Shown here in pieces: positions 5,152-41,278 of a stretch of DNA of 41,278 bases. Within the stretch, counting starts at the first letter, position 1, and each line of letters starts with the position of its first letter. The notes below the pieces were generated by a model, which worked only from the letters and a program-made list of their open reading frames with translations, made no database searches and was not told where the DNA came from. Source of the stretch: a virus; the IMG/VR virus record IMGVR_UViG_3300048583_000035, positions 1-41,278 of that record. One strand, written 5' to 3'. A program made the translations under genes and the position numbers.

Positions 5152-5153
5152 GG

Positions 5154-5468
5154 TCAGCCGGCCAGCTTGTCGGCGATCAGCGCCGCGAGCTTCTTGTCGC
5201 CCGTGCGACCGTCGAACTTGATGCCGAGTTCGCGCGCCTTGGCTTCCAGTTCGTCGCGGGTCGGCGGGGCGTCGTCGTCGGGCTCTTCGGCAGGCGCGGC
5301 AGTCGGCACGGCTTCAGCAGCAGCCTTGGCAGCGTACTGGTCCGGGTGCCAGCCATCGGCCAGCAGCGCGGCCATGTGCTCGGCGTCCTTCGCCGTTGCA
5401 AGATCGTAGGTGCCGCTTTCCAGCGTCCAAGCGGTGCCGACGCGGTACAGCAGCTGAGGGAATTCCAT
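5154..5468 (-). CDS. hypothetical head-associated protein
   Basis: 104 aa, directly downstream of the coat gene and its terminator. Acidic/Pro linker and a C-terminal ..ELEAKARELGIKFDGRTGDKKLAALI.. helix-extension-helix-like tail. Confidence 0.45.
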   Translation of the reverse strand: MEFPQLLYRVGTAWTLESGTYDLATAKDAEHMAALLADGWHPDQYAAKAAAEAVPTAAPAEEPDDDAPPTRDELEAKARELGIKFDGRTGDKKLAALIADKLAG

Positions 5469-5483
5469 TCGCTTCTCCAGTCC

Positions 5484-5514
5484 AGAAGAAAGCCCCGGCG
5501 CGATGGCCGGGGCT
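5484..5514 (-). terminator. intrinsic terminator after the coat gene
   Basis: The minus strand reads AGCCCCGGC-CATCGC-GCCGGGGCT followed by TTCTTCT, starting 8 nt after the coat stop codon. Confidence 0.6.
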
Positions 5515-5521
5515 GCAGGCT

Positions 5522-6745: not shown

Positions 6746-6845
6746 ATTGCCTCCAGATGAGAGTGACGAAAGTGCATGTCAGTTCTCATCCGTAAGGCGG
6801 GACGGTCGCCGAAAGAGCGGTGCCGGCATCTCGCCGGCTGGTCGG

Positions 6846-7775: not shown

Positions 7776-7805
7776 CGGCGCCTTTCAGGGCTGTGCGGTG
7801 CCGGG

Positions 7806-7835
7806 ATTATAGGGATTGTGTTCAAAGTTTTGCAA
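7806..7835 (-). promoter_or_regulatory. sigma70-like promoter upstream of scaffold/coat genes
   Basis: The minus strand reads TTGCAA-18 nt-TATAAT (perfect -10) in a low-GC 96-bp gap, about 30 nt upstream of the scaffold ATG. Confidence 0.45.
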
Positions 7836-7871
7836 TGGTAGAGGCTGCAACCGTGCGGATTGATTGAACGG

Positions 7872-8255
7872 CTAGGCTTCCATCCTGCGCGCAAACTCGG
7901 CCATTAGTTCCTGCGCGATGCACTGAATCGCGTATGCCTCTTGCTCTCTCCCGGGCTCTCGCTCTCCGATGTCGATGCAGTAGCTTTGCCAGACATGCAC
8001 GGCCTCGTGGACCAGCAAGCCGGCAACCTCGACAGGCTTTTTGCCTTGCCAGTTCTTCAAGCAAACGATGCAAACCGTAGTGCCGTCTTCGTTCTCCAGG
8101 GTGTGCATCGTGGCGTCGGCGAACTTGCCGACGCCGGGGAATCGGTCCTTGTGCCCGATGTGCCTCAAGGCCGCGTGGAACTCTTCATCGCTCAGGCACA
8201 GAGCCAGATAGGGGCCGGGCCTCGCAATCCTGCGGTCAAGCCATGCCGTCTTCAT
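7872..8255 (-). CDS. HExxH-motif protein (putative Zn-metallopeptidase), translationally coupled to portal
   Basis: 127 aa. Contains ..GLLVHEAVHVWQ.. plus a downstream ..EQEAYAIQ.. segment. Its ATG overlaps the portal stop (ATGA). Confidence 0.45.
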   Translation of the reverse strand: MKTAWLDRRIARPGPYLALCLSDEEFHAALRHIGHKDRFPGVGKFADATMHTLENEDGTTVCIVCLKNWQGKKPVEVAGLLVHEAVHVWQSYCIDIGEREPGREQEAYAIQCIAQELMAEFARRMEA

Positions 8256-10309
8256 CGCTCAAGGCCGGCTGTCGGCTGTGAGGCTTTCATCAGCGCATCG
8301 GCGACGCCCAGAATCTGCGCCTGCTGCTCGCCTTCCGTCTCCGAAACCACCTTCGCCGTCTGCGCCTTCTTCAAGTCAGCAGACGCCAGCGTTTCCAGCG
8401 TGTCGGCCCGCGCCTTGACGGCCTTCGCCTCGGCTTCCTGCGCCGCTTTCATCAGGTATTCGGTCTGCGCATCCGGCTTCGCGTTGGCCTGCTCTTCGGC
8501 CATGCGCGCCTTCTCATCCTCGTTCGGCTTGATGATGCCCATGCGCACCGCCTTGGCCCGCGCCCAATCGCGCAGGTCGCTCAAGCCCTCGCCTTCGAGG
8601 TTCGCCACCGTCGAGAGCGTCAGCGCCTGCTTCGTCTCGGGATCGTCCGTGATCGTGGCGATGCCGGTCAGCGCGCGGACAACTGCACTGCGCAGGCTGC
8701 TCGACGACGGCCCGACATCCGAGACGACATCGAAGTCAGCGCGCGTGATGTCGTTGCGCATCACCGTGCGGCCGGTCTTCTTGTCGTATGCCGGCTCGTT
8801 CAGCACCACCGACCCGGGCCGGCCGTTGTTGTCCACGATCTTGGCCCGGCGCCGCTGCTCCGTGGCGATGTCGCGCATCATCGACAGCCACACTTGCCCG
8901 GCGCGGGCGTGCGCCTTGGCAAAGTTCGACATGTAAATGAAAACCTGCATGTCTAGTCGGTTCTGGATCAGCTCAACCGCCTTGCCGCTGAGGTTTTGCT
9001 TCATTTCCTCGCCGGCCTGCTGGTTTCCGAGAAGGTCGGTCAGCGCCTGCTGCGCAATCTGCGTCAGCGCGGCCATCGCAGGCGGGATGATCGGCGCCTT
9101 CGTGTACGCCAGCGGCCCGGACGGCTGGCGCTGCCCGTTCTCGTCGGTGACGGGGTTCAGCAGCAAATATGGATACTTCTCGACGTTATCGCGCGCCCAC
9201 ATTTGCGCGTGCCCGGCAATCTGCTCTGGCGTAACAATGGGCTTTTCGATGTCGAAGCGCCCGGCCATCTCGGCAAGCCACGACAGCAGCATGTTGTACA
9301 ACCTCTGCGCGTCCTTTGCCAGCCGGACATGGCCCATGCACCGCTCGACGCCATCGACCACCCAGCGCTTGCCGAAGACGGGGATGATCGGGATACAGCG
9401 CCCGGCGATGACGCCGCAGTCTTCGAGGATGCCGCCGCCGCTCAGGATGTACTTCTCGACGCGCTTGCGCTTCACCTTCTTGGTGCGCGCCAGCTTGAAG
9501 CCGGTTGCCGCCAGTTCGCCCAGCAGTTCCGGGTCTGCTTCAATCTCCGCTTCCGTGACCTTGACCTCGGCGCCTTCGACCAAGCCGGTGAACCACCGCA
9601 CGGTTTCCGTCTTCTCGACCACGCGGTAATACTCGGCGACCCACACAACGTCAGCCGTGCACCAATCAAACTCCACTTGGTTGATCGTCTTCGGCCACGT
9701 CTGCGGATGCTCGCCGAATTCCTCTTCATACGCCTCGTAGGTGTACGGAATCAGCACATAGCAGCGTTTCGCATCGGCCTTGTCCTGCCGCTTGGCGTCG
9801 AGGTCGAAGAAGACGCACGAGTCGGCGTCGTGGATCGGCTCCATCCGCACGCGCTGGCGCTCGTTGTCCTCGCTCTCGTCGTCTTCGTAGCACGCCCGCA
9901 GCCGCCAGGCGCCGAATCCGCCGCCGACAGCTTCCTCGAAGGCGTTGTCATATGCCTCCAGCGCCGTGCAAGCCTGCTCGTCGGCCCGGTAGAGCCCGTC
10001 GCAGGTGTCGGCCATCGTGTCGTCGTTGCTGCCGTCCTTCGACTGGAAATCGACGGTGATCCGGTTCGCGCGATACTCGTTGATGATGCGGATGACGGCC
10101 AAGTGGACGGCGTTGAATTCGTAGCGCGGCTTGTTGGCGAACTGCTCGCCGTGCGGGCCTTCCCATTGCGCGCCGCTGACCGAGTAAAAGCGCCGGTCGC
10201 CTAGGCACTGCTGCCGCTCGTCGTAGACCGCGCCTTGTATGCGGTCAAAGTCGGCGATGGCCTCGGCGTGAATGTCGGCTAATCGGTCTTCGGTGCTTTG
10301 GCGCGGCAT
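8252..10309 (-). CDS. portal protein, P22 gp1-like
   Basis: 685 aa. ..GFGAWRLRACYEDDE..RVRMEPIHDADSCVFFD..DKADAKRCYVL..VAEYYRVVEKTET.. parallels recalled P22 portal (GVGAWRLVTDYED..IRREPIHSACSHVIWD..DKSDARHCTVI..IAEFYEVVEKKET). Confidence 0.9.
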   Translation of the reverse strand: MPRQSTEDRLADIHAEAIADFDRIQGAVYDERQQCLGDRRFYSVSGAQWEGPHGEQFANKPRYEFNAVHLAVIRIINEYRANRITVDFQSKDGSNDDTMADTCDGLYRADEQACTALEAYDNAFEEAVGGGFGAWRLRACYEDDESEDNERQRVRMEPIHDADSCVFFDLDAKRQDKADAKRCYVLIPYTYEAYEEEFGEHPQTWPKTINQVEFDWCTADVVWVAEYYRVVEKTETVRWFTGLVEGAEVKVTEAEIEADPELLGELAATGFKLARTKKVKRKRVEKYILSGGGILEDCGVIAGRCIPIIPVFGKRWVVDGVERCMGHVRLAKDAQRLYNMLLSWLAEMAGRFDIEKPIVTPEQIAGHAQMWARDNVEKYPYLLLNPVTDENGQRQPSGPLAYTKAPIIPPAMAALTQIAQQALTDLLGNQQAGEEMKQNLSGKAVELIQNRLDMQVFIYMSNFAKAHARAGQVWLSMMRDIATEQRRRAKIVDNNGRPGSVVLNEPAYDKKTGRTVMRNDITRADFDVVSDVGPSSSSLRSAVVRALTGIATITDDPETKQALTLSTVANLEGEGLSDLRDWARAKAVRMGIIKPNEDEKARMAEEQANAKPDAQTEYLMKAAQEAEAKAVKARADTLETLASADLKKAQTAKVVSETEGEQQAQILGVADALMKASQPTAGLER

Positions 10310-17772: not shown

Positions 17773-18503
17773 GCGGACGCCTTTTCCAGCTTCTCGAACT
17801 TCGTGCGCCAGGACTTCGCCAGCCTGATTGCTGCCGCTGCCTCGTTCGTCAGGCCAGCGATGCGCGACTCCAGCGTTCGGATCAGCGCCGCCTGCTGCTT
17901 GCACTTCTCTGTCATCGCGGCCAACTTGTCGTCAGACTCCAGCAACAGCCGCACGACCTCGGCGTCGTCCTCGGCACTACGCTGGGCTTCGGCGATTTCC
18001 TCGGCGCTCGGCCCTTCTTCGTCTTGTGGCTCGGCCTCACGCTGCTTGATGAACTTTGCGCCGGCCTTCTCAAGCCGCGCCGACACTCGCGCGCCTTCCT
18101 GCTTGTCGCGCTCGCGCTTAGCCGCAAGCTCTGCCTCAAACTGCTCTACAGGCACGGCGGCCAGCTTCTGAGCCCGGCTCGACAGGTCTTTGCTGATGCC
18201 GGCATCGGCCAGCGTGGGGGCGGTTTTCCCGTGGTCGTTGCTGACGACCACGGGACCGCGCTTCAAAGTCGCGGCCGGCTTCAGCCCGCCTTCGGCCTTC
18301 GTCGCAGCCAGCATCTCGCCAAGCCGGCGCTCTGCGCGAATGCGAATCTCGGCCGCATCAACCTCAAGCGTCTTGTCCTGCGCCATGCGGCCATACGCTT
18401 GCATCGCGGCAGCCTTGTCGGCCCAGGTCTTCACCTCATCGACCGACTTGCATTCGGCGATGGCGCGGCACGCCGCTTCGTACTTGATGAGTTGCTGTGT
18501 CAT
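17769..18503 (-). CDS. conserved phage early protein, unknown function
   Basis: 244 aa from ATG 18503 (ATGA overlap). N-terminus MTQQLIKYEAACRAIAECKSVDEVK.. and a coiled-coil C-terminus. Confidence 0.55.
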   Translation of the reverse strand: MTQQLIKYEAACRAIAECKSVDEVKTWADKAAAMQAYGRMAQDKTLEVDAAEIRIRAERRLGEMLAATKAEGGLKPAATLKRGPVVVSNDHGKTAPTLADAGISKDLSSRAQKLAAVPVEQFEAELAAKRERDKQEGARVSARLEKAGAKFIKQREAEPQDEEGPSAEEIAEAQRSAEDDAEVVRLLLESDDKLAAMTEKCKQQAALIRTLESRIAGLTNEAAAAIRLAKSWRTKFEKLEKASA

Positions 18504-22297: not shown

Positions 22298-22708
22298 ATG
22301 ACCGCTGTAGCAGCATCAAGCGTTCGCATCCGCAGCATGGCAGATGGCACGCTTCGCGCCGAAATTGATTTCGAGCCGCGCGACGCTGCTGCAGCGTTTG
22401 CCATGCTTGGACAGCCCGGCCAGCCCATCGCTGTGGCGCCGCTCAAGACGGCAGCGCAACAACAGGCGCAGGAGGCGGCGCCAAAGGCCGCAGGCGGGCC
22501 GCTGGCGAAGCTGGCGGGGCAGTGGTGCCAGATGCCGCAGTTCCTCGCGTGGAGCGGCTGCAACACGGCTGACGCCGCCGCAGAGTTCATCCGGCGCGAG
22601 TGCGGCATCAGCAGCCGCGCCGAGCTTGACCACAACGCGGCAGCGGCTGCAGCGTTCCACACGCACATCCGCGAGCCGTTTTCAACGTACATGAAGGGCA
22701 CAGGATGA
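22298..22708 (+). CDS. hypothetical early protein
   Basis: 136 aa containing ..WCQMPQFLAWSGC..AAEFIRRECGISSRAELD... Confidence 0.5.
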   Translation: MTAVAASSVRIRSMADGTLRAEIDFEPRDAAAAFAMLGQPGQPIAVAPLKTAAQQQAQEAAPKAAGGPLAKLAGQWCQMPQFLAWSGCNTADAAAEFIRRECGISSRAELDHNAAAAAAFHTHIREPFSTYMKGTG

Positions 22709-23202
22709 CATCGCTTCTACTCATCGCTCAGGAATACCGGGCAGCAGCGGCGCAGCTTGCCGACCTCGACCTCCCGGCAGAAGTCGTCTCCGACACGCTG
22801 GAGAGCCTGGCCGGCGACATTGAAACCAAAGCGCAGAGCGTGGCGCACATGGTCCGCAGCTTGGAAGCGCAAGCCGCCGCCGTGAAGCAGTGGGCGAAGG
22901 ACGCCAGCGAGCGCGCGAAGGCCATCGAAGCACGCGCCGAACGGCTGCGCGAGTACCTGAGCAGCAACATGCAGGCATGCGGCATTCAGCGCATCGAAGG
23001 ACCGGGCATCACGCTGAGCTTTCGCAAGACGAGCGCCGTCGTGATCGATGACGAAGCGCAGATTCCGGCAGCGTACATGCGGCAGAAGCCGCCGCCGCCT
23101 GCGGAGCCGGACAAGCTGGCGCTGGCCGCTGCGCTGAAGACCGGCGAGACGATCCCGGGCGCGCGGCTGGAAACGCGGCAGGCGCTGCAGGTGCGGGCTT
23201 GA
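22705..23202 (+). CDS. Siphovirus Gp157-like protein
   Basis: 165 aa. Coiled-coil N-terminal half and a characteristic C-terminus ..EPDKLALAAALKTGETIPGARLETRQALQVRA. Confidence 0.6.
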   Translation: MTSLLLIAQEYRAAAAQLADLDLPAEVVSDTLESLAGDIETKAQSVAHMVRSLEAQAAAVKQWAKDASERAKAIEARAERLREYLSSNMQACGIQRIEGPGITLSFRKTSAVVIDDEAQIPAAYMRQKPPPPAEPDKLALAAALKTGETIPGARLETRQALQVRA

Positions 23203-23300
23203 ACGCAACAGCTAACCTGGACCCGACAGCATGAGCAACGATTCACGAAGCGAGACCCCGGCGCATGCTGTCGGGGCTCAGGTTCAGCGAGGGGTTAGGC
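23198..23300 (-). repeat. attC-like site S1 (array-distal boundary; left box degenerate)
   Basis: Plus strand: CTTGAAC-GCAACA-GCT-AACCTG-GACCCGACAGCATG(30-nt loop)CATGCTGTCGGGGC-T-CAGGTT-C-AGC-GAGGG-GTTAGGC. The left box overlaps the TGA of the Gp157-like gene. Confidence 0.65.
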
Positions 23301-23302
23301 GC

Positions 23303-23578
23303 GTGGTGTGCGCAGCCCTGCGAGCTACAGACGGCCGGCTACTGCTGGGAATACGGCACTACAGCCAAGACATGCACGACCAACTGGCGCAACGTGCTGA
23401 CCGCGACCGCTTCCTGCTGCGGCTAGACCCGAACCAGGGCTTCGTTGACCAGCACGGCGTGTACATGACGCGGGAGGAAGCCTACCGAGTTGCCGAAGCG
23501 GCTGGGCAGATTGCCTACCCGGAGCGTTGCGGACGTGGCCTTGAAGGGCCGAAGCTTTACAGCGAAGGACTGTACTGA
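23303..23578 (+). CDS. hypothetical protein (cassette 1)
   Basis: 91 aa from GTG 23303, 8 nt after the GAGGGG of S1. The alternative ATG 23231 lies inside the S1 stem. Sequence ..VVCAALRATDGRLLLGIRHYS..GFVDQHGVYMTREEAYRVAEAAGQI..LYSEGLY. Confidence 0.55.
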   Translation: MVCAALRATDGRLLLGIRHYSQDMHDQLAQRADRDRFLLRLDPNQGFVDQHGVYMTREEAYRVAEAAGQIAYPERCGRGLEGPKLYSEGLY

Positions 23579-23585
23579 TGCAAGC

Positions 23586-23670
23586 GCCTAACGTAAAGCT
23601 AACCGGCGCCTGCACGGCGCCGTGAGTAGCACCCTTGCCGGAGGGCGTCCGGTTCAGCGAAATGTTAGGC
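23586..23670 (-). repeat. attC-like site S2
   Basis: Plus strand: GCCTAAC-GTAAA-GCT-AACCGG-CGCC..(branched loop)..GGCG-T-CCGGTT-C-AGC-GAAAT-GTTAGGC. Confidence 0.75.
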
Positions 23671-23688
23671 GCGTGGTGCCGGAGCGAG

Positions 23689-24012
23689 ATGATGACTGAA
23701 GACCAAGTACGCGAGATGGTGAAGGAGTGTGGCCTTGACTGGCAGCGCGGGTACATGCCGATGTTTGATGGCGATCCAACGAACCGCTATGCGGCGCTGG
23801 TCAACGCCGCGCGAACGAACGCCCTGCAAGACGCCGCCCGCTGGGTGGACGAAGAAGTGGGCCACGCCGTGCAAGATGGCTGGAGCGTTGAAGCGGTGCA
23901 GGCCCTGATGGCGACGCGGGACATGCTCCGGGCGCACGCCGACATGAATGCGACGACCGTTGAGGTAATCCCAAGCGCCGATACGCCAACTTGGCGCGAC
24001 GGTGTGCGTTGA
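23689..24012 (+). CDS. hypothetical protein (cassette 2)
   Basis: 107 aa, with GGAG 5 nt upstream of ATG 23689. MMTEDQVREMVKECGLDWQRGY... Confidence 0.6.
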   Translation: MMTEDQVREMVKECGLDWQRGYMPMFDGDPTNRYAALVNAARTNALQDAARWVDEEVGHAVQDGWSVEAVQALMATRDMLRAHADMNATTVEVIPSADTPTWRDGVR

Positions 24013-24014
24013 GG

Positions 24015-24072
24015 GCCTAACGTTGCAATTAAGCGGCTGCCGTAGGCGGTCCGCTTGAATTGCTTGTTAGGG
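24015..24072 (-). repeat. attC-like site S3 (58 bp)
   Basis: Plus strand: GCCTAAC-GTTGC-AATT-AAGCGG-CTGCC(GTA)GGCGG-T-CCGCTT-G-AATT-GCTT-GTTAGGG. The bulges are T24050 and G24057. Confidence 0.85.
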
Positions 24073-24097
24073 CGCTGGTGGAGAAACGGGACGAACT

Positions 24098-24760
24098 ATG
24101 CACGCCACATGCCGCTGGTGCGGACACGCTGAACGAGAGCACGACCGGCAGTATGGGTGCGGCGAGTGCGATTGCGAACACTTTGAAAGGGAAAGAACGA
24201 TGAGCATGGACCATGTGCAACTAGCCCGCGCGCTGTGGGTGTGGTTTGGCTACCGCATTGACGAGAGCAGCGAGCCAGGCGCAGACCCGCGCGTTGACGC
24301 GCTCGCCGAGAAACTGGAAGAGTGGATTCCGGCCTTGCCCTACGAGCCGCTACACAGTGACCAGATTGAGCGCATTGCGCTTGAGTTGGGATGGGACCTT
24401 GACCAAGGGCGCGTAGGCGGCGACCTTGACACTTTTGCGCGCTACGTCGAGCAGGCGCACGGCATTTGCATTACCAACATGGCCGGAGGTGGCAAGGCCG
24501 ACCGCTACGTGAGCCACAACAAGAAAGTGGGGAACATTGGGCCTGCCAACCTGCCGCGCCTAGAAGTGGACGCGGCACACTGCCGGCGCATGGCATGCGG
24601 CGTGCAGGAATGGATGGCGCAGGGCTCAAACCCGGACGAGATGCCGAAGCCGCAGATTGCCGCGCTGGCGTTGCTGGTGAAGGAGCTTTGCACCGAAGTC
24701 CGACGCCTAGGCGAAGACAACACAACGCCGATGCAGCCGCATGCGCACGGGTTGATGTGA
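24098..24760 (+). CDS. hypothetical protein with N-terminal CxxC..CxxC motif (cassette 3)
   Basis: 220 aa starting MHATCRWCGHAEREHDRQYGCGECDCEHF... An in-frame alternative start is ATG 24200, preceded by AAGGGA. Confidence 0.55.
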   Translation: MHATCRWCGHAEREHDRQYGCGECDCEHFERERTMSMDHVQLARALWVWFGYRIDESSEPGADPRVDALAEKLEEWIPALPYEPLHSDQIERIALELGWDLDQGRVGGDLDTFARYVEQAHGICITNMAGGGKADRYVSHNKKVGNIGPANLPRLEVDAAHCRRMACGVQEWMAQGSNPDEMPKPQIAALALLVKELCTEVRRLGEDNTTPMQPHAHGLM

Positions 24761-24767
24761 GCGAGCG

Positions 24768-24866
24768 CCCTAACGGTCGAAGTGGGCCGGAGACCCGGCC
24801 AAAAGGAACGTGATGACTGAGCAAACGACGGAAGCCGGGGCTCTCGGCTCGACTGAGGGGTTAGGC
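24768..24866 (-). repeat. attC-like site S4 (long loop carries SD and ATG of cassette 4 ORF)
   Basis: Plus strand: CCCTAAC-GGTCGA-AGT-GGGCCG-GAG-A-CCCGGC(34-nt loop)GCCGGG-G-CTC-T-CGGCTC-G-ACT-GAGGG-GTTAGGC. The loop contains AAGGAA and ATG 24813. Confidence 0.75.
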
Positions 24867-25133
24867 CTGGAGCCGGAGCGCGCAGCGTTTGAGCGCTGGT
24901 ACGCCACGACTGACGCGCGCTGGTGGAACACAAGCGATGCGGCATTTGCGGCGTGGCGCGCGGCCGTGGCGGCAGAGCGCGAGCGGTGCGCCGTCGCCGC
25001 TTGGAGCCACTACATGGACATTTGCAAGAAGCGCGGGCTACCTGCCGCAATGTTTGATGATTGGTGCGCAGCAGGGGCCATACGCGGGCCTAACGTGGGA
25101 GTTAAGCCGCAGACACCGGCCGCGCCGACGTAA
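24813..25133 (+). CDS. hypothetical protein (cassette 4)
   Basis: 106 aa. The start lies in the S4 loop, and no in-frame start exists for 100 nt after the S4 right box. The ORF reads through the S5 left box (CCT AAC) and stops in the S5 loop. Confidence 0.6.
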   Translation: MTEQTTEAGALGSTEGLGLEPERAAFERWYATTDARWWNTSDAAFAAWRAAVAAERERCAVAAWSHYMDICKKRGLPAAMFDDWCAAGAIRGPNVGVKPQTPAAPT

Positions 25134-25188
25134 CCACACACACAAATGCTGGCAGCCGGTGGCTGTCGGCTTGAACGACTAGTTAGGG
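25088..25188 (-). repeat. attC-like site S5
   Basis: Plus strand: GCCTAAC-GTGGGA-GTT-AAGCCG-CAGAC..(loop)..GGCTG-T-CGGCTT-G-AAC-GACTA-GTTAGGG. The minus strand contains GTTCAAGCCGAC and CGGCTTAACTC. Confidence 0.85.
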
Positions 25189-25214
25189 CTCAGCGCCCGC
25201 CACAGGAGTGAACC

Positions 25215-25502
25215 ATGTACGTGATTGCAACCGAAAGCCGCCGCAAAGACGAAGTGCTGTTTATGGTGGACCGGAACCGCCAGCGCGCCAGCTTTTGGAG
25301 CAACCGCCTTAACGACGCCATGAAGTACGGCGACAAGTCTGCGGCCCAGCAGAAAGCTACAAAGCTGCGATTCAACCGGCCGCGCGTGCTGACGCTTCAA
25401 GACGCTGCGCGCATTGCTGGCGAGCAGGCACGCGAGCATGAGCATGAGCAAGCGATGGCCGACGATGAGGCCGGATGGGATGGGCACAAGGGGCATTTCT
25501 GA
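25215..25502 (+). CDS. hypothetical protein (cassette 5)
   Basis: 95 aa with a GGAG SD. MYVIATESRRKDEVLFMVDRNRQRASFW... Confidence 0.6.
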   Translation: MYVIATESRRKDEVLFMVDRNRQRASFWSNRLNDAMKYGDKSAAQQKATKLRFNRPRVLTLQDAARIAGEQAREHEHEQAMADDEAGWDGHKGHF

Positions 25503-25503
25503 G

Positions 25504-25561
25504 CCCTAACGCCCGAGTTCACGCGGCGCCGTAGGCGCTCGCGTGGAACGAAGTGTTAGGC
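25504..25561 (-). repeat. attC-like site S6 (58 bp)
   Basis: Plus strand: CCCTAAC-GCCCGA-GTTC-ACGCG-GCGCC(GTA)GGCGC-T-CGCGT-G-GAAC-GAAGT-GTTAGGC. Confidence 0.85.
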
Positions 25562-25591
25562 ATCACTTTTACCGAAGCGAAGGGAGCGACG

Positions 25592-25906
25592 ATGGACATT
25601 GACACTGCAGACCATGTGCTGCACGGCCCGAGCGGCGAAACCTGGGTGGTGGCCTACGTTGAAGGCGACCGGCTGGCTTGGTGCGGGTGGCCCGAAGGCG
25701 AGGCAAAGCTGGCCGATTGCACGCTGCTGAAGAAGGCCACTACCGAGCAGCGTGACAAGCTGCTGCTGGAGATGGCCGATTGCACGAACGACCGTCGCGG
25801 AAGGTATGCGCGGCAGCGCCTTGATTTGAACGACTGCCCGCGAACAAGCCGGTTAAACATGGACAGGGACCGGATGTGGGCAGAGCACGGCATCCCTGGC
25901 GCGTGA
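25592..25906 (+). CDS. hypothetical protein (cassette 6)
   Basis: 104 aa from ATG 25592, preceded by AGGGAG. MDIDTADHVLHGPSGETWVVAYVEGDRLAWCGWPEGE... Confidence 0.6.
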   Translation: MDIDTADHVLHGPSGETWVVAYVEGDRLAWCGWPEGEAKLADCTLLKKATTEQRDKLLLEMADCTNDRRGRYARQRLDLNDCPRTSRLNMDRDRMWAEHGIPGA

Positions 25907-25907
25907 T

Positions 25908-25965
25908 GCCTAACGGCCAAGCTCACCTGCCGCCGCAGGCGGTCAGGTGCAGCGAGGGGTTAGGC
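25908..25965 (-). repeat. attC-like site S7 (58 bp)
   Basis: Plus strand: GCCTAAC-GGCCAA-GCT-CACCTG-CCGCC(GCA)GGCGG-T-CAGGTG-C-AGC-GAGGG-GTTAGGC. Confidence 0.85.
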
Positions 25966-25984
25966 CCCAACTTGGAGAACTGAA

Positions 25985-26317
25985 ATGACGGTGATGAGCA
26001 ACGAAGACACGGCGCTGCCGGAGACGACCGAAGACGAGGCTTGGTACGACGCCGAGATTGCCCCGGCGCTGGCCGCGCTTGCGAAGCGGTGCCACGAGCG
26101 CGGGATGTCGTTTATTGCAGCGGTGGAGTACCAGCCCGGCGACCGGGCGGGCACCTACTACCTGACGCAAGACGCCGGAACTGCTATGCGCATGCTGCAC
26201 CTGTGCGCGCAGACCGTGCCAAACGTGGACGGCTACATCATGAGCCTACGCAAGTGGGCCGATGCCAACGGTGTGGACACCGGCGGCAGCTTTGTGATGC
26301 GGCGCCTTGGGGCCTAA
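25985..26317 (+). CDS. hypothetical protein (cassette 7)
   Basis: 110 aa with a GGAG SD. The stop codon is the TAA inside the S8 left box (GCC TAA C). Confidence 0.6.
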   Translation: MTVMSNEDTALPETTEDEAWYDAEIAPALAALAKRCHERGMSFIAAVEYQPGDRAGTYYLTQDAGTAMRMLHLCAQTVPNVDGYIMSLRKWADANGVDTGGSFVMRRLGA

Positions 26318-26380
26318 CGTTGCCGGTAACCGGCCCGTTGCGGCTTGCCGCAATGGGTCCGGTTGACTGGCGTGTTAGGC
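26312..26380 (-). repeat. attC-like site S8
   Basis: Plus strand: GCCTAAC-GTTGCC-GGT-AACCGG-CCCGTTGCGG(CTTG)CCGCAATGGG-T-CCGGTT-G-ACT-GGCGT-GTTAGGC. Confidence 0.85.
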
Positions 26381-26406
26381 AGCACTGTTGAACAACGAGG
26401 AAACGT

Positions 26407-26760
26407 ATGAGCAACCACACACCAGGGCCTTGGCATACAGCGACTGCTGACGAATGGCGCACTGCCAGCGGCGAGCATGCGCAGTGGGGCCGCTTTGACA
26501 TCAGCGCCGGCAGCAACGACCAGGCCGCAGAGAACTACTACCGCGTGGCCAGCGTGAGCAACGTGAACAACTCGGACCAGAACCTGGCCAATGCGAAGCT
26601 GATTGGGGCCGCGCCTGACCTACTGATGGCGCTGCGGGAGATTGCCGCCGACTACGCCGACCGATTTGACATGGACAGCCCGAGCACAAACCCCGGCATG
26701 AAGTACGTGGTGCAGCAGGCACGCGAGGCTATCGCGAAGGCGACGGGTTGTGCTGCCTAA
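26407..26760 (+). CDS. conserved hypothetical phage protein (cassette 8)
   Basis: 117 aa with a GAGGA SD. ..HTPGPWH..NLANAKLIGAAPDLLMALREI... The stop is the TAA inside the S9 left box. Confidence 0.6.
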   Translation: MSNHTPGPWHTATADEWRTASGEHAQWGRFDISAGSNDQAAENYYRVASVSNVNNSDQNLANAKLIGAAPDLLMALREIAADYADRFDMDSPSTNPGMKYVVQQAREAIAKATGCAA

Positions 26761-26812
26761 CGTTCGTATTGAGCCGCAGCCGTAGGCTGTCGGCTCGAAT
26801 ACGGGGTTAGGG
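26755..26812 (-). repeat. attC-like site S9 (58 bp)
   Basis: Plus strand: GCCTAAC-GTTCGT-ATT-GAGCCG-CAGCC(GTA)GGCTG-T-CGGCTC-G-AAT-ACGGG-GTTAGGG. Confidence 0.85.
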
Positions 26813-26858
26813 CGCTGATGCCGGAGCGCGATCATGTTTGCGTGTTACAAAATAGTTG

Positions 26859-26886
26859 TTGACGCTGGCGGTTGCTGTGCTACAGT
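26859..26886 (+). promoter_or_regulatory. sigma70-like promoter inside cassette 9
   Basis: TTGACG-16 nt-TACAGT. The transcript would begin at the 22-nt leader that is shared with the promoter at 30494. Confidence 0.55.
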
Positions 26887-26891
26887 AACCA

Positions 26892-26913
26892 CATCGCAAC
26901 ACGCAACCCGGAG
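26892..26913 (+). repeat. 22-nt leader repeat, copy 1 (CATCGCAACACGCAACCCGGAG)
   Basis: Identical to 30528..30549. It ends in the GGAG Shine-Dalgarno sequence and contains the internal direct repeat CGCAAC-A-CGCAAC. Confidence 0.9.
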
Positions 26914-26919
26914 AGACAA

Positions 26920-27063
26920 ATGCAAACCACCTACTGGAACGGAGACCTGGCCCGCTACACCGGCAAGACCATGACATTGCACGGCGGGTTGTTCTACGAA
27001 ATCGAACTGCTTGAAGGCCACCTGAAGGGCCAAACCAAAGTCACGCAACGCGCCCCCAAGTAA
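26920..27063 (+). CDS. small hypothetical protein (cassette 9, gene 1)
   Basis: 47 aa: MQTTYWNGDLARYTGKTMTLHGGLFYEIELLEGHLKGQTKVTQRAPK. The ATG is 6 nt after the leader GGAG. Confidence 0.5.
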   Translation: MQTTYWNGDLARYTGKTMTLHGGLFYEIELLEGHLKGQTKVTQRAPK

Positions 27064-27075
27064 AGGAGACTTGAC

Positions 27076-27294
27076 ATGCACACCTTCCAAGTTGTTACCC
27101 GCGAAGTCCAACATGCCGGTCGTCAAATCACTGCTGACGTTGTGCGCAACGATGGGCGTGTCGTTCGCTCTGGCATGTGGCCCGACTATGCCGAGGCCGA
27201 CTGCGCACTGCTGAACGAGTATTGCGCTGGAGGCTGGACTGCTGCGCAGTACCACGCCGAGCGTGCTGTGCGTATGGCGTCTCTGCGCAAATGA
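27076..27294 (+). CDS. hypothetical protein (cassette 9, gene 2)
   Basis: 72 aa with an AAGGAG SD. Confidence 0.55.
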   Translation: MHTFQVVTREVQHAGRQITADVVRNDGRVVRSGMWPDYAEADCALLNEYCAGGWTAAQYHAERAVRMASLRK

Positions 27295-27476
27295 GCGCCG
27301 ACAAGAACAAAGGGGGGCGACCCCCGGCCCCGCCCGGCCTGCGCCGGGTAAACGTCCCGCTTCGCCTGCCCGAGTGGCTGGTGCAGTGGATGGCAGAGCA
27401 GGCCGAGACGCCTGCGGAGTTGATCGAAGCCGCACTGCTGAAGGCGCACAAGCTGCGCCCGCCGCGTGCGCCCTAA
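27291..27476 (+). CDS. ribbon-helix-helix-like small DNA-binding protein (cassette 9, gene 3)
   Basis: 61 aa with an ATGA overlap. ..KGGRPPAPPGLRRVNVPLRLPEWLVQWMAEQA..AELIEAALLKA... The stop is the TAA in the S10 left box. Confidence 0.5.
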   Translation: MSADKNKGGRPPAPPGLRRVNVPLRLPEWLVQWMAEQAETPAELIEAALLKAHKLRPPRAP

Positions 27477-27528
27477 CGTTCGAGCTAACTTGCCGCCGTA
27501 GGCGGTCAAGTTGAGCGAGGGGTTGTGC
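27471..27528 (-). repeat. attC-like site S10 (58 bp; variant right box GTTGTGC)
   Basis: Plus strand: CCCTAAC-GTTCGA-GCT-AACTTG-CCGCC(GTA)GGCGG-T-CAAGTT-G-AGC-GAGGG-GTTGTGC. Confidence 0.85.
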
Positions 27529-27563
27529 TTCACCCATCCGAAGCGCGCAACTGTAGGAACTAC

Positions 27564-27785
27564 ATGATTCTTGAAATGATGCCAACGCTGCTGATGCGCG
27601 CGTTCCATGTGCCAGAGGTGGTTGTGGACTGCGGGAAGCCCGACGACTTTGAAGGCACCGCCTGCGCCGCGTTTCTGATGTGGCGCATGGAGTACCCGGA
27701 CTACAGCGCGAAGCTGCGTATTCCTGAGCAGCCAGAGGCCGAGAAGGCGCTGAACCGGGCACTCTTCCGTAGGCGTGCCGCGTGA
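27564..27785 (+). CDS. hypothetical protein (cassette 10)
   Basis: 73 aa from ATG 27564, preceded by AGGAA. MILEMMPTLLMRAFHVPEVVVDCGKPDDFEG... Confidence 0.55.
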   Translation: MILEMMPTLLMRAFHVPEVVVDCGKPDDFEGTACAAFLMWRMEYPDYSAKLRIPEQPEAEKALNRALFRRRAA

Positions 27786-27786
27786 A

Positions 27787-27879
27787 GCACAACGCAGAAG
27801 TAACCGGCTTCGGCCGAGCGGAGGATCGATGACCAACGAACGTACGCCGGCCGAAGTCCGGTTGACTGCCGGGTTAGGC
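27787..27879 (-). repeat. attC-like site S11 (variant left box GCACAAC; loop carries SD and ATG)
   Basis: Plus strand: GCACAAC-GCAGA-AGT-AACCGG-CTTCGGCCG(31-nt loop)CGGCCGAAG-T-CCGGTT-G-ACT-GCCGG-GTTAGGC. The loop contains GGAGGA and ATG 27829. Confidence 0.8.
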
Positions 27880-28128
27880 CCGCTGCCCGAGCCAGCCGCA
27901 GAAGCGGTGATGGACTTATGCGCCGACCACCAAGGGCCAGTAGAGGCATGGCAGTACCTGCCGGCCGACGCGATGCTCTACACCGCGAACCAGATGCGCA
28001 GCTATGCCGCCGCAGAGATGGTGCGTGCAGTTTCCGCAGAGCGTGCGCGCTGGACAGAAGCGGTGATGGCCGAGCTTGACGGCAACGGCCAGGCGCACGC
28101 CATCGTGGACTATGCGACAAGGGCCTAA
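27829..28128 (+). CDS. hypothetical protein (cassette 11)
   Basis: 99 aa from the loop ATG (an alternative ATG 27910 lies after the site). The stop is the TAA in the S12 left box. Confidence 0.55.
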   Translation: MTNERTPAEVRLTAGLGPLPEPAAEAVMDLCADHQGPVEAWQYLPADAMLYTANQMRSYAAAEMVRAVSAERARWTEAVMAELDGNGQAHAIVDYATRA

Positions 28129-28218
28129 CGACGAAGCTGAACGGGAGCCCACGCATGACCAAGCCTGAAAACGCACCCGCCGCTGCCGTGGGCTCTCCGT
28201 TCGAGCGCCCTGTTGGGC
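28123..28218 (-). repeat. attC-like site S12 (variant right box GTTGGGC; loop carries ATG)
   Basis: Plus strand: GCCTAAC-GACGAA-GCT-GAACGG-GAGCCC(39-nt loop with ATG 28155)GGGCTC-T-CCGTTC-G-AGC-GCCCT-GTTGGGC. Confidence 0.8.
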
Positions 28219-28544
28219 GGCCGGTGCCGGAGCGCGTGACCTTGGCGTGCCTGCTGGTGCAGCAAAACTTCAAGCCCGGCGACCAGGCGCCACAAGGCTA
28301 CTTGGCGTGGCACGAGTGGGCCGAGGTGCAGCACAAGGCCGGGTTGCGGCAGAAGCAGTGCGGCCGGTGCGGGCTGTGGCGCTACCCGCAGCAGTTGAGC
28401 GCAGAGGTTGACCGCGCCGAGCTTGTGATGACGAAGAAGCGCAAGTCGCGGCGCGTGACGGTGGAGACGCCGGTCTGCAACGACTGCCACAAGCCGCCCA
28501 ACGTGGGAGCTAAGTTGGAGACAACGGCGCCCGCACAGAACTGA
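28155..28544 (+). CDS. zinc-ribbon protein (cassette 12)
   Basis: 129 aa containing ..CGRCGLWRYP..(28)..CNDC... It starts in the S12 loop and stops in the S13 loop after reading through the left box GCCCAAC. Confidence 0.6.
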   Translation: MTKPENAPAAAVGSPFERPVGRPVPERVTLACLLVQQNFKPGDQAPQGYLAWHEWAEVQHKAGLRQKQCGRCGLWRYPQQLSAEVDRAELVMTKKRKSRRVTVETPVCNDCHKPPNVGAKLETTAPAQN

Positions 28545-28603
28545 CCGGAGCATGACGGCGCAGATGGGCGCCGTTGGCTCTCAACTTGAGCGACAGGTTA
28601 GGC
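28496..28603 (-). repeat. attC-like site S13 (variant left box GCCCAAC)
   Basis: Plus strand: GCCCAAC-GTGGGA-GCT-AAGTTG-GAGACAACGGCGCCC(33-nt loop)GGGCGCCGTTGGCTC-T-CAACTT-G-AGC-GACAG-GTTAGGC. Confidence 0.8.
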
Positions 28604-28630
28604 CACGCTGTGGCCGAAGCGAGGTAAAGC

Positions 28631-28852
28631 ATGAGAAGCACACGATCTAACCTGATGGCGATTGCAGCAATCGCGGCGATGGGCGCGGGGCTGGCGCAGG
28701 CGGCAATGCCGGCGCCGCGCAAGGGCAGTAACCGTGACTACAAGCCCACGCCACCGCGCTGCGACACAGCGCTGGCGCGCGAAATTGCCGAGCACAACGA
28801 AGCCGTCGAGCGCCGCAAGGCTGAAAAGAAGGCGCGGAAGCTGGCGCGCTGA
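28631..28852 (+). CDS. small secreted basic protein (cassette 13)
   Basis: 73 aa with a GAGG SD. Signal-peptide-like MRSTRSNLMAIAAIAAMGAGLAQA. Confidence 0.6.
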   Translation: MRSTRSNLMAIAAIAAMGAGLAQAAMPAPRKGSNRDYKPTPPRCDTALAREIAEHNEAVERRKAEKKARKLAR

Positions 28853-28860
28853 ATTGCGTG

Positions 28861-28911
28861 GCCTAACGTGTTTTAGGCCACACCATCGGAAACTCTGCAC
28901 AAGTTTTAGGC
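28861..28911 (-). other. attI-like simple site plus a direct-repeat copy (int-proximal end of the array)
   Basis: The minus strand reads GGCCTAAAACACG|TTAGGCC (plus 28861-28879). This compares with the recalled class-1 attI1 core GCCCTAAAACAAAG|TTAGGC. GTTTTAGGC recurs 33 bp away (28870-28878 and 28903-28911). No L stem or bulges are present here. Confidence 0.6.
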
Positions 28912-28913
28912 AC

Positions 28914-29198
28914 ATGCGAAGCTACTACGCCCCATCGACGCGCCACAACGGCAGCGAACGCAGCGACATCCTGAGCCGCGAGCGCGAGCCGTACACGCGA
29001 CCGCTACCGTACATCGGTCGGCTGTTGATCGCGCTGCCGGGCTACAGCATTGATTGGACGCTGCGGCAGGACATGCGCGACATGCGGCGCTTCTATGCGC
29101 TCGGCGCAGATGGCGAGCGGCTGGCCCATGCCGCGCCGAAGGAGTTGCTGCGCAGCGTTGCGCTGCTGGTGCCGCGCTACAGCGTGGCGGAGGATTGA
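28914..29198 (+). CDS. hypothetical protein between the attI-like site and xis
   Basis: 94 aa: MRSYYAPSTRHNGSERSDILSREREPYTRPLPYIG... The ATG abuts the second GTTTTAGGC repeat. Confidence 0.5.
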   Translation: MRSYYAPSTRHNGSERSDILSREREPYTRPLPYIGRLLIALPGYSIDWTLRQDMRDMRRFYALGADGERLAHAAPKELLRSVALLVPRYSVAED

Positions 29199-29201
29199 GC
29201 G

Positions 29202-29408
29202 TTGAAGCAAGACGAAGAAAAGTACATCCCGCTACTTGAGTGGGGCGCTAGGCGTTACGGCTCGCTTGCGTCTGAGTACACGCTGCGCCAGTGGGCGAAG
29301 AGTGGCGAGATATATCCGCCGCCGCAGAAGGTCGGCAATCGATGGGCTGTGCTGCCGACTGCGCAGCGGATAGTAGATGGCAGGCTTCCGCTGGTGTCGC
29401 GGCTGTGA
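29202..29408 (+). CDS. xis: excisionase, lambda Xis-like
   Basis: TTG 29202 lies 7 nt after GGAGGA. ..YIPLLEWGARRYGSLASEYTLRQWAKSGEIYPPPQKVG.. parallels recalled lambda Xis MYLTLQEWNARQRRPRSLETVRRWVRECRIFPPPVKDG. Confidence 0.7.
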   Translation: MKQDEEKYIPLLEWGARRYGSLASEYTLRQWAKSGEIYPPPQKVGNRWAVLPTAQRIVDGRLPLVSRL

Positions 29409-30466
29409 ACGCAGCCCGTCGCCAGCGCAGCCGCAGCACCTGGCCGCGCGGAATGATGGAACCGCGCCCCGGGTACTACGCCTGGCGCCATCCAGACGGC
29501 CGAACGTTTGCAATCGGCCGCGTGCCGCTGTCGCACGCAATCGCCGAGGCCGCCGCTGCGAATGCGCACCTCGAAAGCCTGAAGCCGGGCCTAGTCGAGC
29601 GGCTGACCGGCGCAGACCGCACCGTGGCCGACCTGCTCGGCAAGATGGACCCGGCCCGCACGCCGAACACTGCAAAGAGCATGCGCAGCCTGGACAAGAT
29701 CATCACCGCCGCAATCGGCACCGTGCCATGCGGGCAGTTGACCGTGCGCCAGTGCGCCGACTTGATCGAAAGCATCCGCGAAGCTGGCAAGGAGCGCAGC
29801 GCGCAGGCCGTGCGCTCGCGCCTAGTGTCGGCGTGCAAGCTGGGCGGCGAACTCGGCTGGATGGAGAGCAACCCGGCCGCCATGACGCGCGCCCGCAAGG
29901 TGACAACGAAGCGCGGCCGGCTGACGCTGGAAACGTTCCGCGCGATCTACGCGAAGGCTGGCGAGGTCGCAGAGTGGCTACCGCACGCAATGATGCTGGC
30001 GCTGGTGACCGGCGCAGACCGCGTGACGATCACGCGCATGACGCGGGACATGGTGGCCGATGGGCACCTGACGTACCGGCGCAGCAAGACGGGCGCCGCT
30101 GTGGCCGTGCCGCTGCGGCTGCGGCTGGATGCTGTGGGCGTGACGCTGGATGAGCTTGTGCGGCCGAAGACGGGCGTCGTGAGCCGGTATCTGGTGCACC
30201 ACGTCAACCCGCACGGCAACGCGCCTGCGGGGAGCGCGGTGTTTCCGGATCGCGTGTCGAAGGCGTTCACGGCTGCGCGCAAGTTGGCTGGGTTGCCGGA
30301 CGAGGGCGCGGGGACTTTTCACGAGCTGCGGTCGCTGTCGAAACGCTTGTATGACCAGCAGGGCGGAGTAGACACCAGAGCCCTCCTCGGTCACAAGACG
30401 CAGAAGATGGCCGACATGTATGCCGACCCGCGAGGCATAGAGGCGATCCGGGTGCGGGTGGCATGA
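29405..30466 (+). CDS. int: tyrosine integrase, lambda Int family (arm-binding N-terminus)
   Basis: 353 aa from GTG 29405 (GTGA overlap with xis). ..RPGYYAWRHPDGRTFAIG.. and ..TFHELRSLSKRLY..ALLGHKTQKMADMYADPRG.. align with recalled lambda Int (..NGYYCYRDPRTGKEFGLG.. and ..TFHELRSLSARLY..HLLGHKSDTMASQYRDDRG). Confidence 0.85.
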   Translation: MNAARRQRSRSTWPRGMMEPRPGYYAWRHPDGRTFAIGRVPLSHAIAEAAAANAHLESLKPGLVERLTGADRTVADLLGKMDPARTPNTAKSMRSLDKIITAAIGTVPCGQLTVRQCADLIESIREAGKERSAQAVRSRLVSACKLGGELGWMESNPAAMTRARKVTTKRGRLTLETFRAIYAKAGEVAEWLPHAMMLALVTGADRVTITRMTRDMVADGHLTYRRSKTGAAVAVPLRLRLDAVGVTLDELVRPKTGVVSRYLVHHVNPHGNAPAGSAVFPDRVSKAFTAARKLAGLPDEGAGTFHELRSLSKRLYDQQGGVDTRALLGHKTQKMADMYADPRGIEAIRVRVA

Positions 30467-40856: not shown

Positions 40857-41278
40857 TCAATCCTCCGCAAAGACCAGCGCGCCGGCCGGGAAAAGTGGCG
40901 TCGAGAGCGCCGAAACGATGATCGGCGTGGTCAGTGCCGTCTTCCGCAGAATCTGCGACGTGCCGGGCGCGCAGGTCGCAACGTGCGTAATCGTCTGCGT
41001 GCCGACAAACGACACATTGCACTCCGGGAAGGTGATCTGCGCCGCGTTCTTGTAGGCGTTGCCTGAAGCGTTTGCGCTGTACGGGCTCAAGCCATCGCAA
41101 ATGGTCCAGCCGGCCACGTCACGCGACACCAGCACAAGCGCGTAGTCGTCATAAGTCGCTTCGTTCGTGCCGGGCGAGCCAGCCTCGCCGGGGTCCGCTG
41201 TGTAGAGGCGAACTTGCAGGTTCGCGCCGTAGCTGGGCATCGCCACAGCATTGGCCTCGAACTTCACGAAGTCGTTCT
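40857..41278 (-). CDS. 3' part of the junction-spanning virion structural protein gene (true start at 149)
   Basis: The frame ..DFVKFEANAVAMPSYGANLQV..LVFAED is open to the window end. Its upstream codons lie in 128-149 of the circle. Confidence 0.8.
   Translation of the reverse strand, partial: NDFVKFEANAVAMPSYGANLQVRLYTADPGEAGSPGTNEATYDDYALVLVSRDVAGWTICDGLSPYSANASGNAYKNAAQITFPECNVSFVGTQTITHVATCAPGTSQILRKTALTTPIIVSALSTPLFPAGALVFAED
41152..41278. repeat. terminal direct duplication, copy 2
   Basis: Identical to bases 1-127. Confidence 0.95.

Follow-up and report, generated by a model that had tools for sequence, protein, structure and literature searches.

A probable integron-type array of thirteen attC-separated cassettes in a P22-like phage genome

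The window analysed in this study is a stretch of 41,278 nucleotides (nt), positions 1 to 41,278 of the IMG/VR virus record IMGVR_UViG_3300048583_000035. Positions 23198-28912, on the + strand of the early region, hold 13 cassettes of 316-753 bp each, and this segment is very probably an integron-type array of 13 attC-separated cassettes carried by a P22-like phage, with the integron integrase (IntI) supplied in trans. The hairpins that separate the open reading frames (ORFs) have the anatomy and strand polarity of attC sites, and their box sequences co-vary across the ORFs. Window positions 1-127 are repeated at 41152-41278 as a direct terminal repeat of 127 nt, and the window was therefore taken to be a complete circular genome of about 41.15 kb, with a G+C content of 64%. 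P22-type coat, portal and stabilisation proteins, a large terminase and a beta-helix tailspike-like protein are encoded in it, which identifies a P22-like temperate phage.

Box co-variation and attC identity of the hairpins

A sequence-only reading of the window had claimed that each ORF is preceded by a right box and followed by a left box that are perfectly complementary to each other, and that the two boxes of a single hairpin often mismatch. All four box pairs and the mismatching hairpins quoted there were located in the sequence (sites are numbered here from S0, so that the site numbers of that reading are one higher). The perfect complementary runs across the ORFs of cassettes 1 to 13 measured, as claimed, 9, 7, 11, 8, 12, 12, 12, 12, 10, 12, 9, 10 and 12 nt, and the runs inside single hairpins were 9, 6, 6, 6, 6, 7, 7, 6, 3, 3, 3 and 3. 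At box positions 4-12 the bases matched in 101/117 cases across ORFs against 58/108 within hairpins. The permutation check that the reading had called for was carried out by shuffling the partners of left and right boxes; the observed sum of 136 was reached by 0 of 200,000 permutations, whose sums had a mean of 79.8, a standard deviation of 6.7 and a maximum of 121. Moreover, 92 units in 23 other viral contigs behaved in the same way: their runs averaged 9.0 across units and 5.6 within hairpins, and the observed runs summed to 832, whereas no permutation exceeded 536. The across-unit run length had its mode at 12 nt and fell steeply above 12. One long duplicated segment had been named as another possible cause; it was excluded because no similarity, in DNA or in protein, was found among the 13 cassette bodies. 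Co-variation of boxes across units is the classical evidence for integron cassette boundaries, and the pattern is a textbook integron signature rather than a new principle.

The hairpins were found with an explicit scanner for arms, bulges and spacers together with a covariance model, and an energy-based hairpin scanner was dropped as insensitive and unspecific. The strict R'' consensus RYYYAAC was matched by 9 of 13 left boxes and the strict R' consensus GTTRRRY by 9 of 13 right boxes; the remaining boxes deviated at one or two positions, and AAC and GTT were invariant. All 13 hairpins shared one layout, namely ..YYTAAC, an unpaired spacer of 5-6 nt, a 9-nt arm, a variable tip, a 6-nt arm, a bulge, a 3-nt arm, a 5-nt spacer and GTTRRR. 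The L arms had no mismatch in any of the 13 window hairpins, whose interiors ranged from 44 to 94 nt. The bulged base of the 3' arm was G in 10 hairpins and C in three, and a second extrahelical base, a T, followed the tip stem. S0, which had been overlooked in the sequence-only reading, is a complete hairpin with the non-consensus left box GGGCTTGAAC ending at 23204. Over 127 distinct related sites, 98% of the L and tip helix was paired, and 12 of its 14 pairs showed compensatory changes; the variable R-box positions were unpaired in 14-25% of sites, which is the signature of hybrid sites.

The strand of the sites was resolved with a covariance model, R1, built from five window sites on the coding strand, which scored about 79 bits on the + strand of the window against about 23 bits on the - strand. 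In plasmid R100, R1 also matched the attC site of aadA1; the match scored 47.5 bits (E ~1e-10) and lay on the intI1 strand, opposite to aadA1, whereas on the aadA1 coding strand R1 reached only 13.9 bits. The extrahelical T and G align in the opposite-strand match. The attC bottom strand is the one that the integron integrase folds and cuts between A and C of AAC (G/TT on the top strand, the slash within a motif marking the cut or crossover here and below). Recombination of this strand is about 1000-fold more efficient, and it is this strand that determines the orientation of cassettes (PMC8946536). Because R1, built on the coding strand, finds the attC site of aadA1 on the intI1 strand, the coding strand of the phage is equivalent to the attC bottom strand; compared with classical cassettes, the ORFs of the array are thus inverted. 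By their sequence and predicted fold, the array hairpins are integron attC sites.

Two other identities were tried and rejected. Intrinsic terminators do not fit, as the hairpins lack T tails and the 15 terminator-like sites of the window correspond to background (12.3 expected); none of those sites coincides with a complete + strand hairpin followed by a T tail. Known RNA families do not fit either, the whole window having been scanned against Rfam with no match. The hairpin sites contained no promoter or terminator consensus. The earlier description of the boxes as a footprint of mobility rather than of conserved terminators was borne out to this extent, the hairpins being neither terminator-like nor followed by T tails.

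Cassette exchange, crossover point and array ends

The sequence-only reading had also proposed a search for the same ORF with the same private box pair in another neighbourhood, and such cases exist. The DNA of cassette 8 is 96% identical to a unit of contig L011 that has different neighbours, and the ORF of cassette 3 has a homologue with 85% amino acid (aa) identity in contig L019, where it is the last cassette and lies 57 nt before an N-terminal IntI fragment. Homologous cassettes of different arrays can also differ in their boxes, and yet the boxes of each remain mutually complementary. Compensatory pairs of this kind are GTTAGGCAGCAT/ATGCTGCCTAAC versus GTTATGCAGCAT/ATGCTGCATAAC in homologous cassettes; cassette 1 and its homologue in L161 likewise differ by a compensatory box change, and in L017 a 62% aa homologue of cassette 7 has boxes that pair over 9 nt and co-vary at one position. 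These different but complementary boxes show that the pairing of a unit's own ends is kept by selection and is not only inherited from one event. Sequence comparison shows that cassettes have been exchanged between arrays.

The left end of the array gives a breakpoint. Contig L162 encodes an identical Gp157 protein and is 99% identical to window 22466-23205, and it diverges from the window directly after GGGCTTGAAC/G into another hairpin interior and other cassettes. Furthermore, where interiors were at least 90% identical between contigs, the downstream flank alone was shared in 15 pairs (six distinct interiors) and the upstream flank alone in 0; the same polarity, interior with downstream flank, was also seen in chromosomal loci. 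The array begins with a full hairpin, S0, that has a foreign left box, and it ends with a left box followed by the non-hairpin sequence AAC-GTGTTTTAGGCC at S13. The reverse complement of S13, GGCCTAAAAC-AC-GTTAGG, resembles attI1, GCCCTAAAAC-AAA-GTTA; the cores are CCTAAAAC-AC-GTTAGG and CCTAAAAC-AAA-GTTA, respectively. Contig L166, with homologous xis and int genes, has the same AAC-GTGTTTTAGGC after a different last cassette. The L162 breakpoint, the polarity of the interiors and the attI-like array end together place the probable crossover at CCTAA/C in the left box, as is also expected from attC sites that are inverted relative to the ORFs. As a separate observation, at about 2136-2148 of L162 a right box directly abuts a left box (GTTAGGCCCCAAC) with nothing between them, which may be an empty or collapsed cassette position.

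From these results a mechanism can be proposed. The mobile unit would begin with C and continue with the hairpin interior, the right box, the ORF and, last, the left box (..CCTAA). Once excised as a circle, the unit would have its two box halves paired in an R stem of at most 12 bp; insertion catalysed by IntI would then leave the halves on opposite sides of the ORF, and each resident hairpin would be a hybrid made from two cassettes. This arrangement would account both for the complementarity across ORFs and for the mismatches inside hairpins. The ORFs would be read by early-operon transcription toward the integrase end, where the array stops at the attI-like junction, and IntI would come from IntI-encoding phage relatives or from host chromosomal integrons that use the same attC type. 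The sequence-only reading had pictured each unit as a circle whose two ends formed one R box and which was inserted by crossover within the box. This picture fits the integron cassette model and stands, with the refinement that the circle would also carry the hairpin interior and that the crossover would fall in the left box.

Integrases, rival explanations and phage relatives

In the complete 41-kb genome no intI gene was detected (best tblastn E=0.03). The tyrosine integrase of the window (Int) matched the Pfam domains Phage_integrase and Phage_int_M, both weakly, had no match in NCBIfam and no real similarity to IntI1, and is 39% identical to the Int of contig L096, which has a lambda arm-binding domain. 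By these comparisons the window Int is a lambda-type enzyme and not an integron integrase. Because the genome holds no integron integrase, movement of the cassettes must depend on IntI in trans. With 13 attC sites in series, a terminal junction and no intI, the array has the composition of a cluster of attC sites lacking an integron integrase (CALIN), here with an attI-like end, and is presumably mobilised in trans.

Possible sources of IntI are widespread. The hairpin pattern was present in 34 viral contigs and in 45 genome contigs, which belonged mostly to Burkholderiales and other Betaproteobacteria, and also to Stutzerimonas, Rhodanobacter and a few others; several of these genome contigs have a true IntI beside the array in canonical geometry. 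A search with an IntI alignment showed that 293 viral contigs encode IntI relatives, and three of the viral proteins, when tested, scored 427-476 bits against a curated integron-integrase cut-off of 265. Sites, array positions and unit orientations were counted in the best 80 of these 293 contigs. At the viral intI loci, 124 attC sites lay on the intI strand against 31 on the other strand; the array, where present, was upstream of intI; and 51 array units were sense against 7 antisense, with the ORFs mostly directed toward intI. A motif ..TAAC-TTAAATTC..GACAC is conserved 40-60 nt before the intI start in the viral contigs. IntI-encoding viral contigs also hold phage tail genes and a second integrase.

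Some relatives showed further features. In L019, a 120-aa ORF at 7621-7983 (minus strand) encodes a truncated IntI N-terminus directly after the array and is followed by phage tail genes; L019 may be a decaying phage integron, and a search for relatives of this fragment returned only the L019 contig itself. In L096, the ORF just upstream of intI (3709-4479) encodes a protein with a PAPS-reductase domain (E=5e-5), a domain known from phage DNA-modification genes. In L167 (Virus Rctr41k, KX853513), an IntI homologue annotated as xerD lies at 4680-5678, and about five attC-like sites with across-unit complementarity of 9-11 nt follow downstream at about 6650-9430; the layout differs in that the integrase is upstream of, and co-directional with, the ORFs.

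Four other explanations were weighed against the integron-type array. In the first, the ORFs would be shuffled with no site-specific recombinase: as in the T4 promoter-stem-loop cassettes, the conserved hairpins would serve only as short homology patches for homologous recombination, either general or phage-encoded. The array does lie directly after Gp157, a recombination-module gene, the genome lacks intI, and interiors are not strictly linked to either neighbour. Identical 44-nt interiors also occur beside unrelated cassettes: that of S9 (27477-27522) is 44/44 identical in L001 (13254) and L024 (minus-strand coordinate 8563), with unrelated boxes and flanks, so that interiors behave as a separately shared module. 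However, the breakpoints fall at 7-nt box cores and never within interiors, and the L arms stay paired both in the window and in the wider set of sites. Homologous exchange would moreover be symmetric, whereas the exchange seen is polar, and homologous recombination offers no reason for complementary unit ends or for their compensatory change. The strand-specific attC match and the relatives that have IntI and attI in canonical geometry also speak against it, and we regard this explanation as improbable.

A second explanation, to which we attach still less weight, takes the hairpins as elements that act in the early RNA, for instance stem-loops for processing or stabilisation, and attributes the complementarity across ORFs to selection for pairing between the 5' and 3' ends of each processed mRNA rather than to DNA mobility. 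The sense strand of the probable polycistronic transcript does contain all the hairpins, several loops contain a ribosome-binding site (RBS) and a start codon, and the compensatory box changes show selection for pairing, which is possible in principle on RNA. Nevertheless, the occurrence of cassettes in different arrays and orders is left unexplained, as are the L162 breakpoint, the interior polarity, the attI-like end, the attC identity and the association with IntI, and neither an Rfam family nor terminator tails are found. An additional RNA role of the hairpins is possible.

A third explanation, in which the phage's own lambda-type integrase (29291-30466) rather than IntI recombines the sites, is just as hard to sustain. 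Along the attC bottom strand, the order of array, attI-like junction and integrase does reproduce the geometry of true integrons. The enzyme, however, has no specific similarity to IntI, and its L096 homologue directly follows a separate bona fide IntI, which itself comes after the array; this arrangement suggests that the two enzymes divide the work. Lambdoid and P22-like phages also usually have their accessory genes in the region before xis and int. Finally, small hairpin elements of the miniature inverted-repeat transposable element (MITE) or repetitive extragenic palindromic (REP) kind, chance or duplication can be dismissed as hardly credible: identical interiors between unrelated genes would suit such elements, but insertion into a palindromic target predicts boxes that are complementary per hairpin, the opposite of what is seen, chance is excluded by the permutation tests in the window and in the 23 other viral contigs, and the cassettes lack the mutual similarity that duplication would leave.

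Several points weigh against the integron-type array itself. With no intI in the genome, the array may no longer be mobile and could be a decaying relic. S13 is attI-like by a short resemblance to attI1; it is distinct from the TTAAATTC..GACAC motif found upstream of phage IntI genes, and a search for the S13 pattern in viral contigs gave no match. In their relatives, cassettes 3 and 8 are flanked by interiors that differ on both sides from those of the window, and 93 pairs of near-identical interiors share neither flank; such leaky linkage is not explained by a single fixed crossover, although it may be likened to the homogeneous attC sites of chromosomal arrays. Cassettes 10 and 11 were antisense by codon usage score. 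The ORFs of cassettes 4 and 12 cross the left box into the next hairpin interior, so the boundaries do not always isolate complete genes.

Beyond the array itself, we give roughly even standing to a broader proposal, in which the window would be an IntI-less member of a large phage-borne integron lineage, resident in temperate phages that infect Betaproteobacteria and related hosts. The cassettes of such a lineage would be "inside-out": the attC site would come first, and its loop would often provide the RBS and start codon; the ORF would lie on the recombined strand, the early operon would read toward attI and intI, and a separate lambda-type Int would serve lysogeny. Early accessory genes, which could be counter-defence genes, would be shuffled by integron chemistry among co-infecting phages and prophages.

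Cassette content, genome setting and comparison with known systems

The coordinates of the array and its flanks are collected in Table 1. The array is flanked by a Gp157-family gene on the left and by a 94-aa ORF, an excisionase-like ORF and a tyrosine integrase on the right; the TGA stop of the Gp157-family gene falls within the left box of S0.

Table 1. Features of the array region and its flanks in the window
Feature	Positions	Strand	Left box end	Right box start	Remarks
Gp157-family gene	22705..23202	+			conserved left array flank; Pfam Sipho_Gp157 E=7e-43
attC S0	23198..23300	+	23204	23294	left box CTTGAAC (non-consensus, backbone-derived), right box GTTAGGC; 0 L-arm mismatches by scanner
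Cassette 1	23204..23591	+			ORF 23231-23578, 115 aa; boxes 9 nt; PHROG 839 E=2e-23
attC S1	23586..23670	+	23592	23664	71-nt interior
Cassette 2	23592..24020	+			ORF ending 24012; boxes 7 nt
attC S2	24015..24072	+	24021	24066	44-nt interior, GCCGTAGGC tip
Cassette 3	24021..24773	+			ORF 24098-24760, 220 aa; boxes 11 nt
attC S3	24768..24866	+	24774	24860	85-nt interior; RBS and start of cassette 4 ORF in loop
Cassette 4	24774..25093	+			ORF 24810-25133, 39 nt into S4; boxes 8 nt
attC S4	25088..25188	+	25094	25182	87-nt interior; L arms GTTAAGCC/GGCTT-G-AAC, identical to aadA1 attC bottom strand
Cassette 5	25094..25509	+			ORF 25215-25502; boxes 12 nt; PHROG 29068 E=2e-4
attC S5	25504..25561	+	25510	25555	44-nt interior
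Cassette 6	25510..25913	+			ORF 25553-25906; boxes 12 nt
attC S6	25908..25965	+	25914	25959	44-nt interior
Cassette 7	25914..26317	+			ORF 25985-26317; boxes 12 nt
attC S7	26312..26380	+	26318	26374	55-nt interior
Cassette 8	26318..26760	+			ORF 26407-26760; boxes 12 nt; PHROG 1273 E=2e-16
attC S8	26755..26812	+	26761	26806	44-nt interior
Cassette 9, multi-ORF	26761..27476	+			small ORFs ending 27063, 27294, 27476; boxes 10 nt
attC S9	27471..27528	+	27477	27522	44-nt interior
Cassette 10	27477..27792	+			ORF ending 27785; boxes 12 nt; coding strand ambiguous
attC S10	27787..27879	+	27793	27873	79-nt interior; GGAGGA and ATG of cassette 11 ORF in loop
Cassette 11	27793..28128	+			ORF 27829-28128; boxes 9 nt; coding strand ambiguous
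attC S11	28123..28218	+	28129	28212	82-nt interior; ATG of cassette 12 ORF in loop
Cassette 12	28129..28501	+			ORF 28155-28544; boxes 10 nt
attC S12	28496..28603	+	28502	28597	94-nt interior; contains last 42 nt of cassette 12 ORF
Cassette 13	28502..28866	+			ORF 28631-28852; boxes 12 nt
S13, terminal attI-like junction	28861..28912	+	28867		left box GCCTAA/C, then GTGTTTTAGGCC without L arms; second GTTTTAGGCAC at 28902
Right flank	28914..30466	+			94-aa ORF 28914-29198; small excisionase-like ORF 29202-29408; lambda-type tyrosine integrase within 29291-30466

Phage protein families (PHROG) were matched by three cassette ORFs, those of cassettes 1, 5 and 8. Substitutions relative to homologues at codon positions one, two and three numbered 13/21/54 in cassette 3 and 0/2/12 in cassette 8, and 20/22/39 in a third homologue comparison. 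Coding strands were called with a codon log-likelihood score that had been checked on known genes, and calls by the longest ORF were dropped as uninformative at 64% G+C; 10 of 12 window units were sense by this score. Because of the PHROG matches, the third-position bias and the codon score, the cassette ORFs are considered, on the sequence evidence, to be real and to lie on the + strand.

Some ORFs extend into the hairpins. The ORFs of cassettes 1, 4, 11 and 12 apparently begin inside the preceding loop, and an RBS-like sequence with the start codon of the downstream ORF was observed in the long loops S0, S3, S10 and S11 (23231, 24810, 27829 and 28155), as well as at about 1198 of L162. The ORFs started in loops run on through the L' arm and the right box, giving for example the peptide VGRP from GTTGGGCGGCC. 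Since the ORFs of cassettes 4 and 12 also end inside the next hairpin, the loop start codons were downgraded as evidence for linkage to the downstream ORF. The readthrough of these two ORFs (25094-25133 and 28502-28544) has the common form CCT AAC GTG GGA G.T AAG, or P-N-V-G-A/V-K, with stops 39-42 nt inside the next attC site, and their C-terminal tails would change with each cassette move. Cassette 9, the only one with several ORFs, contains a sigma-70-like promoter at 26859-26886 (TTGACG, 16 nt, TACAGT with a TG extension); with its three small ORFs and this promoter-like site, it may be a module that drives its own expression. The integrase-proximal end of the array yielded no promoter-like site.

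The setting of the array recurs in relatives. Gp157 homologues lie at about 8728-9222 in L093 and 7842-8336 in L095, each with intI at 10001, and a Gp157 homologue is also directly upstream of the array or of intI in the viral or prophage contigs L006, L020 and L036. The integron platform seems to occupy a fixed slot in this phage group. Elsewhere in the window, ARAGORN predicted a tRNA-Ser(GCT) at 18207-18282, a call of uncertain status, as the whole-window Rfam scan gave no match at the gathering score. A blastn search of the array region against deposited phages returned no match, and exact-protein look-ups of the 94-aa ORF, cassette 8 and Int found nothing.

To our knowledge, integrons have been regarded as bacterial devices, and phage examples have so far been few and small. 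In the literature, no description of this phage integron family or of inverted cassettes in phages was found; what is new here is that the array sits in a phage, that its ORFs are inverted and that the family is large. A complete phage genome thereby presents a 13-cassette array that obeys integron rules, beside hundreds of viral contigs with an integron integrase of their own. If such arrays are active, phages would own a cassette economy for early accessory genes that is separate from chromosomal arrays and opposite in orientation. The precise exchange of single small phage genes, and the action of integron integrases on phage genomes during infection or induction, become questions that can be asked. 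The array is also a natural test case for uncoupling attC strand choice from cassette expression.

Among known systems, the T4-type promoter-stem-loop (PeSL) mobile regulatory cassettes have short conserved stem-loops that flank small accessory ORFs in a hyperplastic phage region, where ORFs are shuffled between phages; they act through homologous recombination and carry promoters. The window sites differ from them in having no promoter or terminator consensus, in being attC homologues, and in breakpoints that are polar and limited to the boxes. Sedentary chromosomal integrons of Beta- and Gammaproteobacteria, with IntI of the soil/freshwater group, also resemble the array: Burkholderiales and others have the same attC type beside a true IntI, and near-identical attC interiors are likewise common to unrelated cassettes. 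None of the window cassette ORFs was found in the chromosomal integron loci that were fetched. Those loci may also differ in ORF orientation: the longest open frames lie mostly on the opposite strand (45 versus 5), the codon score being mixed there and unreliable at lower G+C.

Class 1 integrons provide a close counterpart. The attC site of aadA1 in In2/R100 has the same RYYYAAC/GTTRRRY boxes, unpaired spacer, L stem with extrahelical T and G, and variable terminal structure; class 1 cassettes likewise have complementary box halves of their own and hybrid resident sites, and the geometry of array, attI and integrase along the bottom strand is alike. In a complete integron, ORFs are on the top strand, directed away from intI and driven by the cassette promoter Pc. 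Here, in contrast, the ORFs lie on the attC bottom strand, each attC site precedes its ORF, the ORFs point toward the integrase end, the R stem reaches up to 12 bp, the genome has no intI, and the array sits in a phage early operon and not downstream of Pc.

In the deposited-phage collection, an IntI homologue was found in only 9 records, none of the type of the window array. Qi et al. (2023) reported integron components in 21 deposited phages, including CALINs of as few as two attC sites, and showed that phage attC sites can be recombined by IntI1 (PMC9892861). The array described here resembles these phage CALINs in being a cluster of attC sites without intI inside a phage genome. It differs from them in its 13 cassettes, its complete P22-like genome, its inverted ORFs, its attI-like end and its membership of a large metagenomic family with its own IntI.

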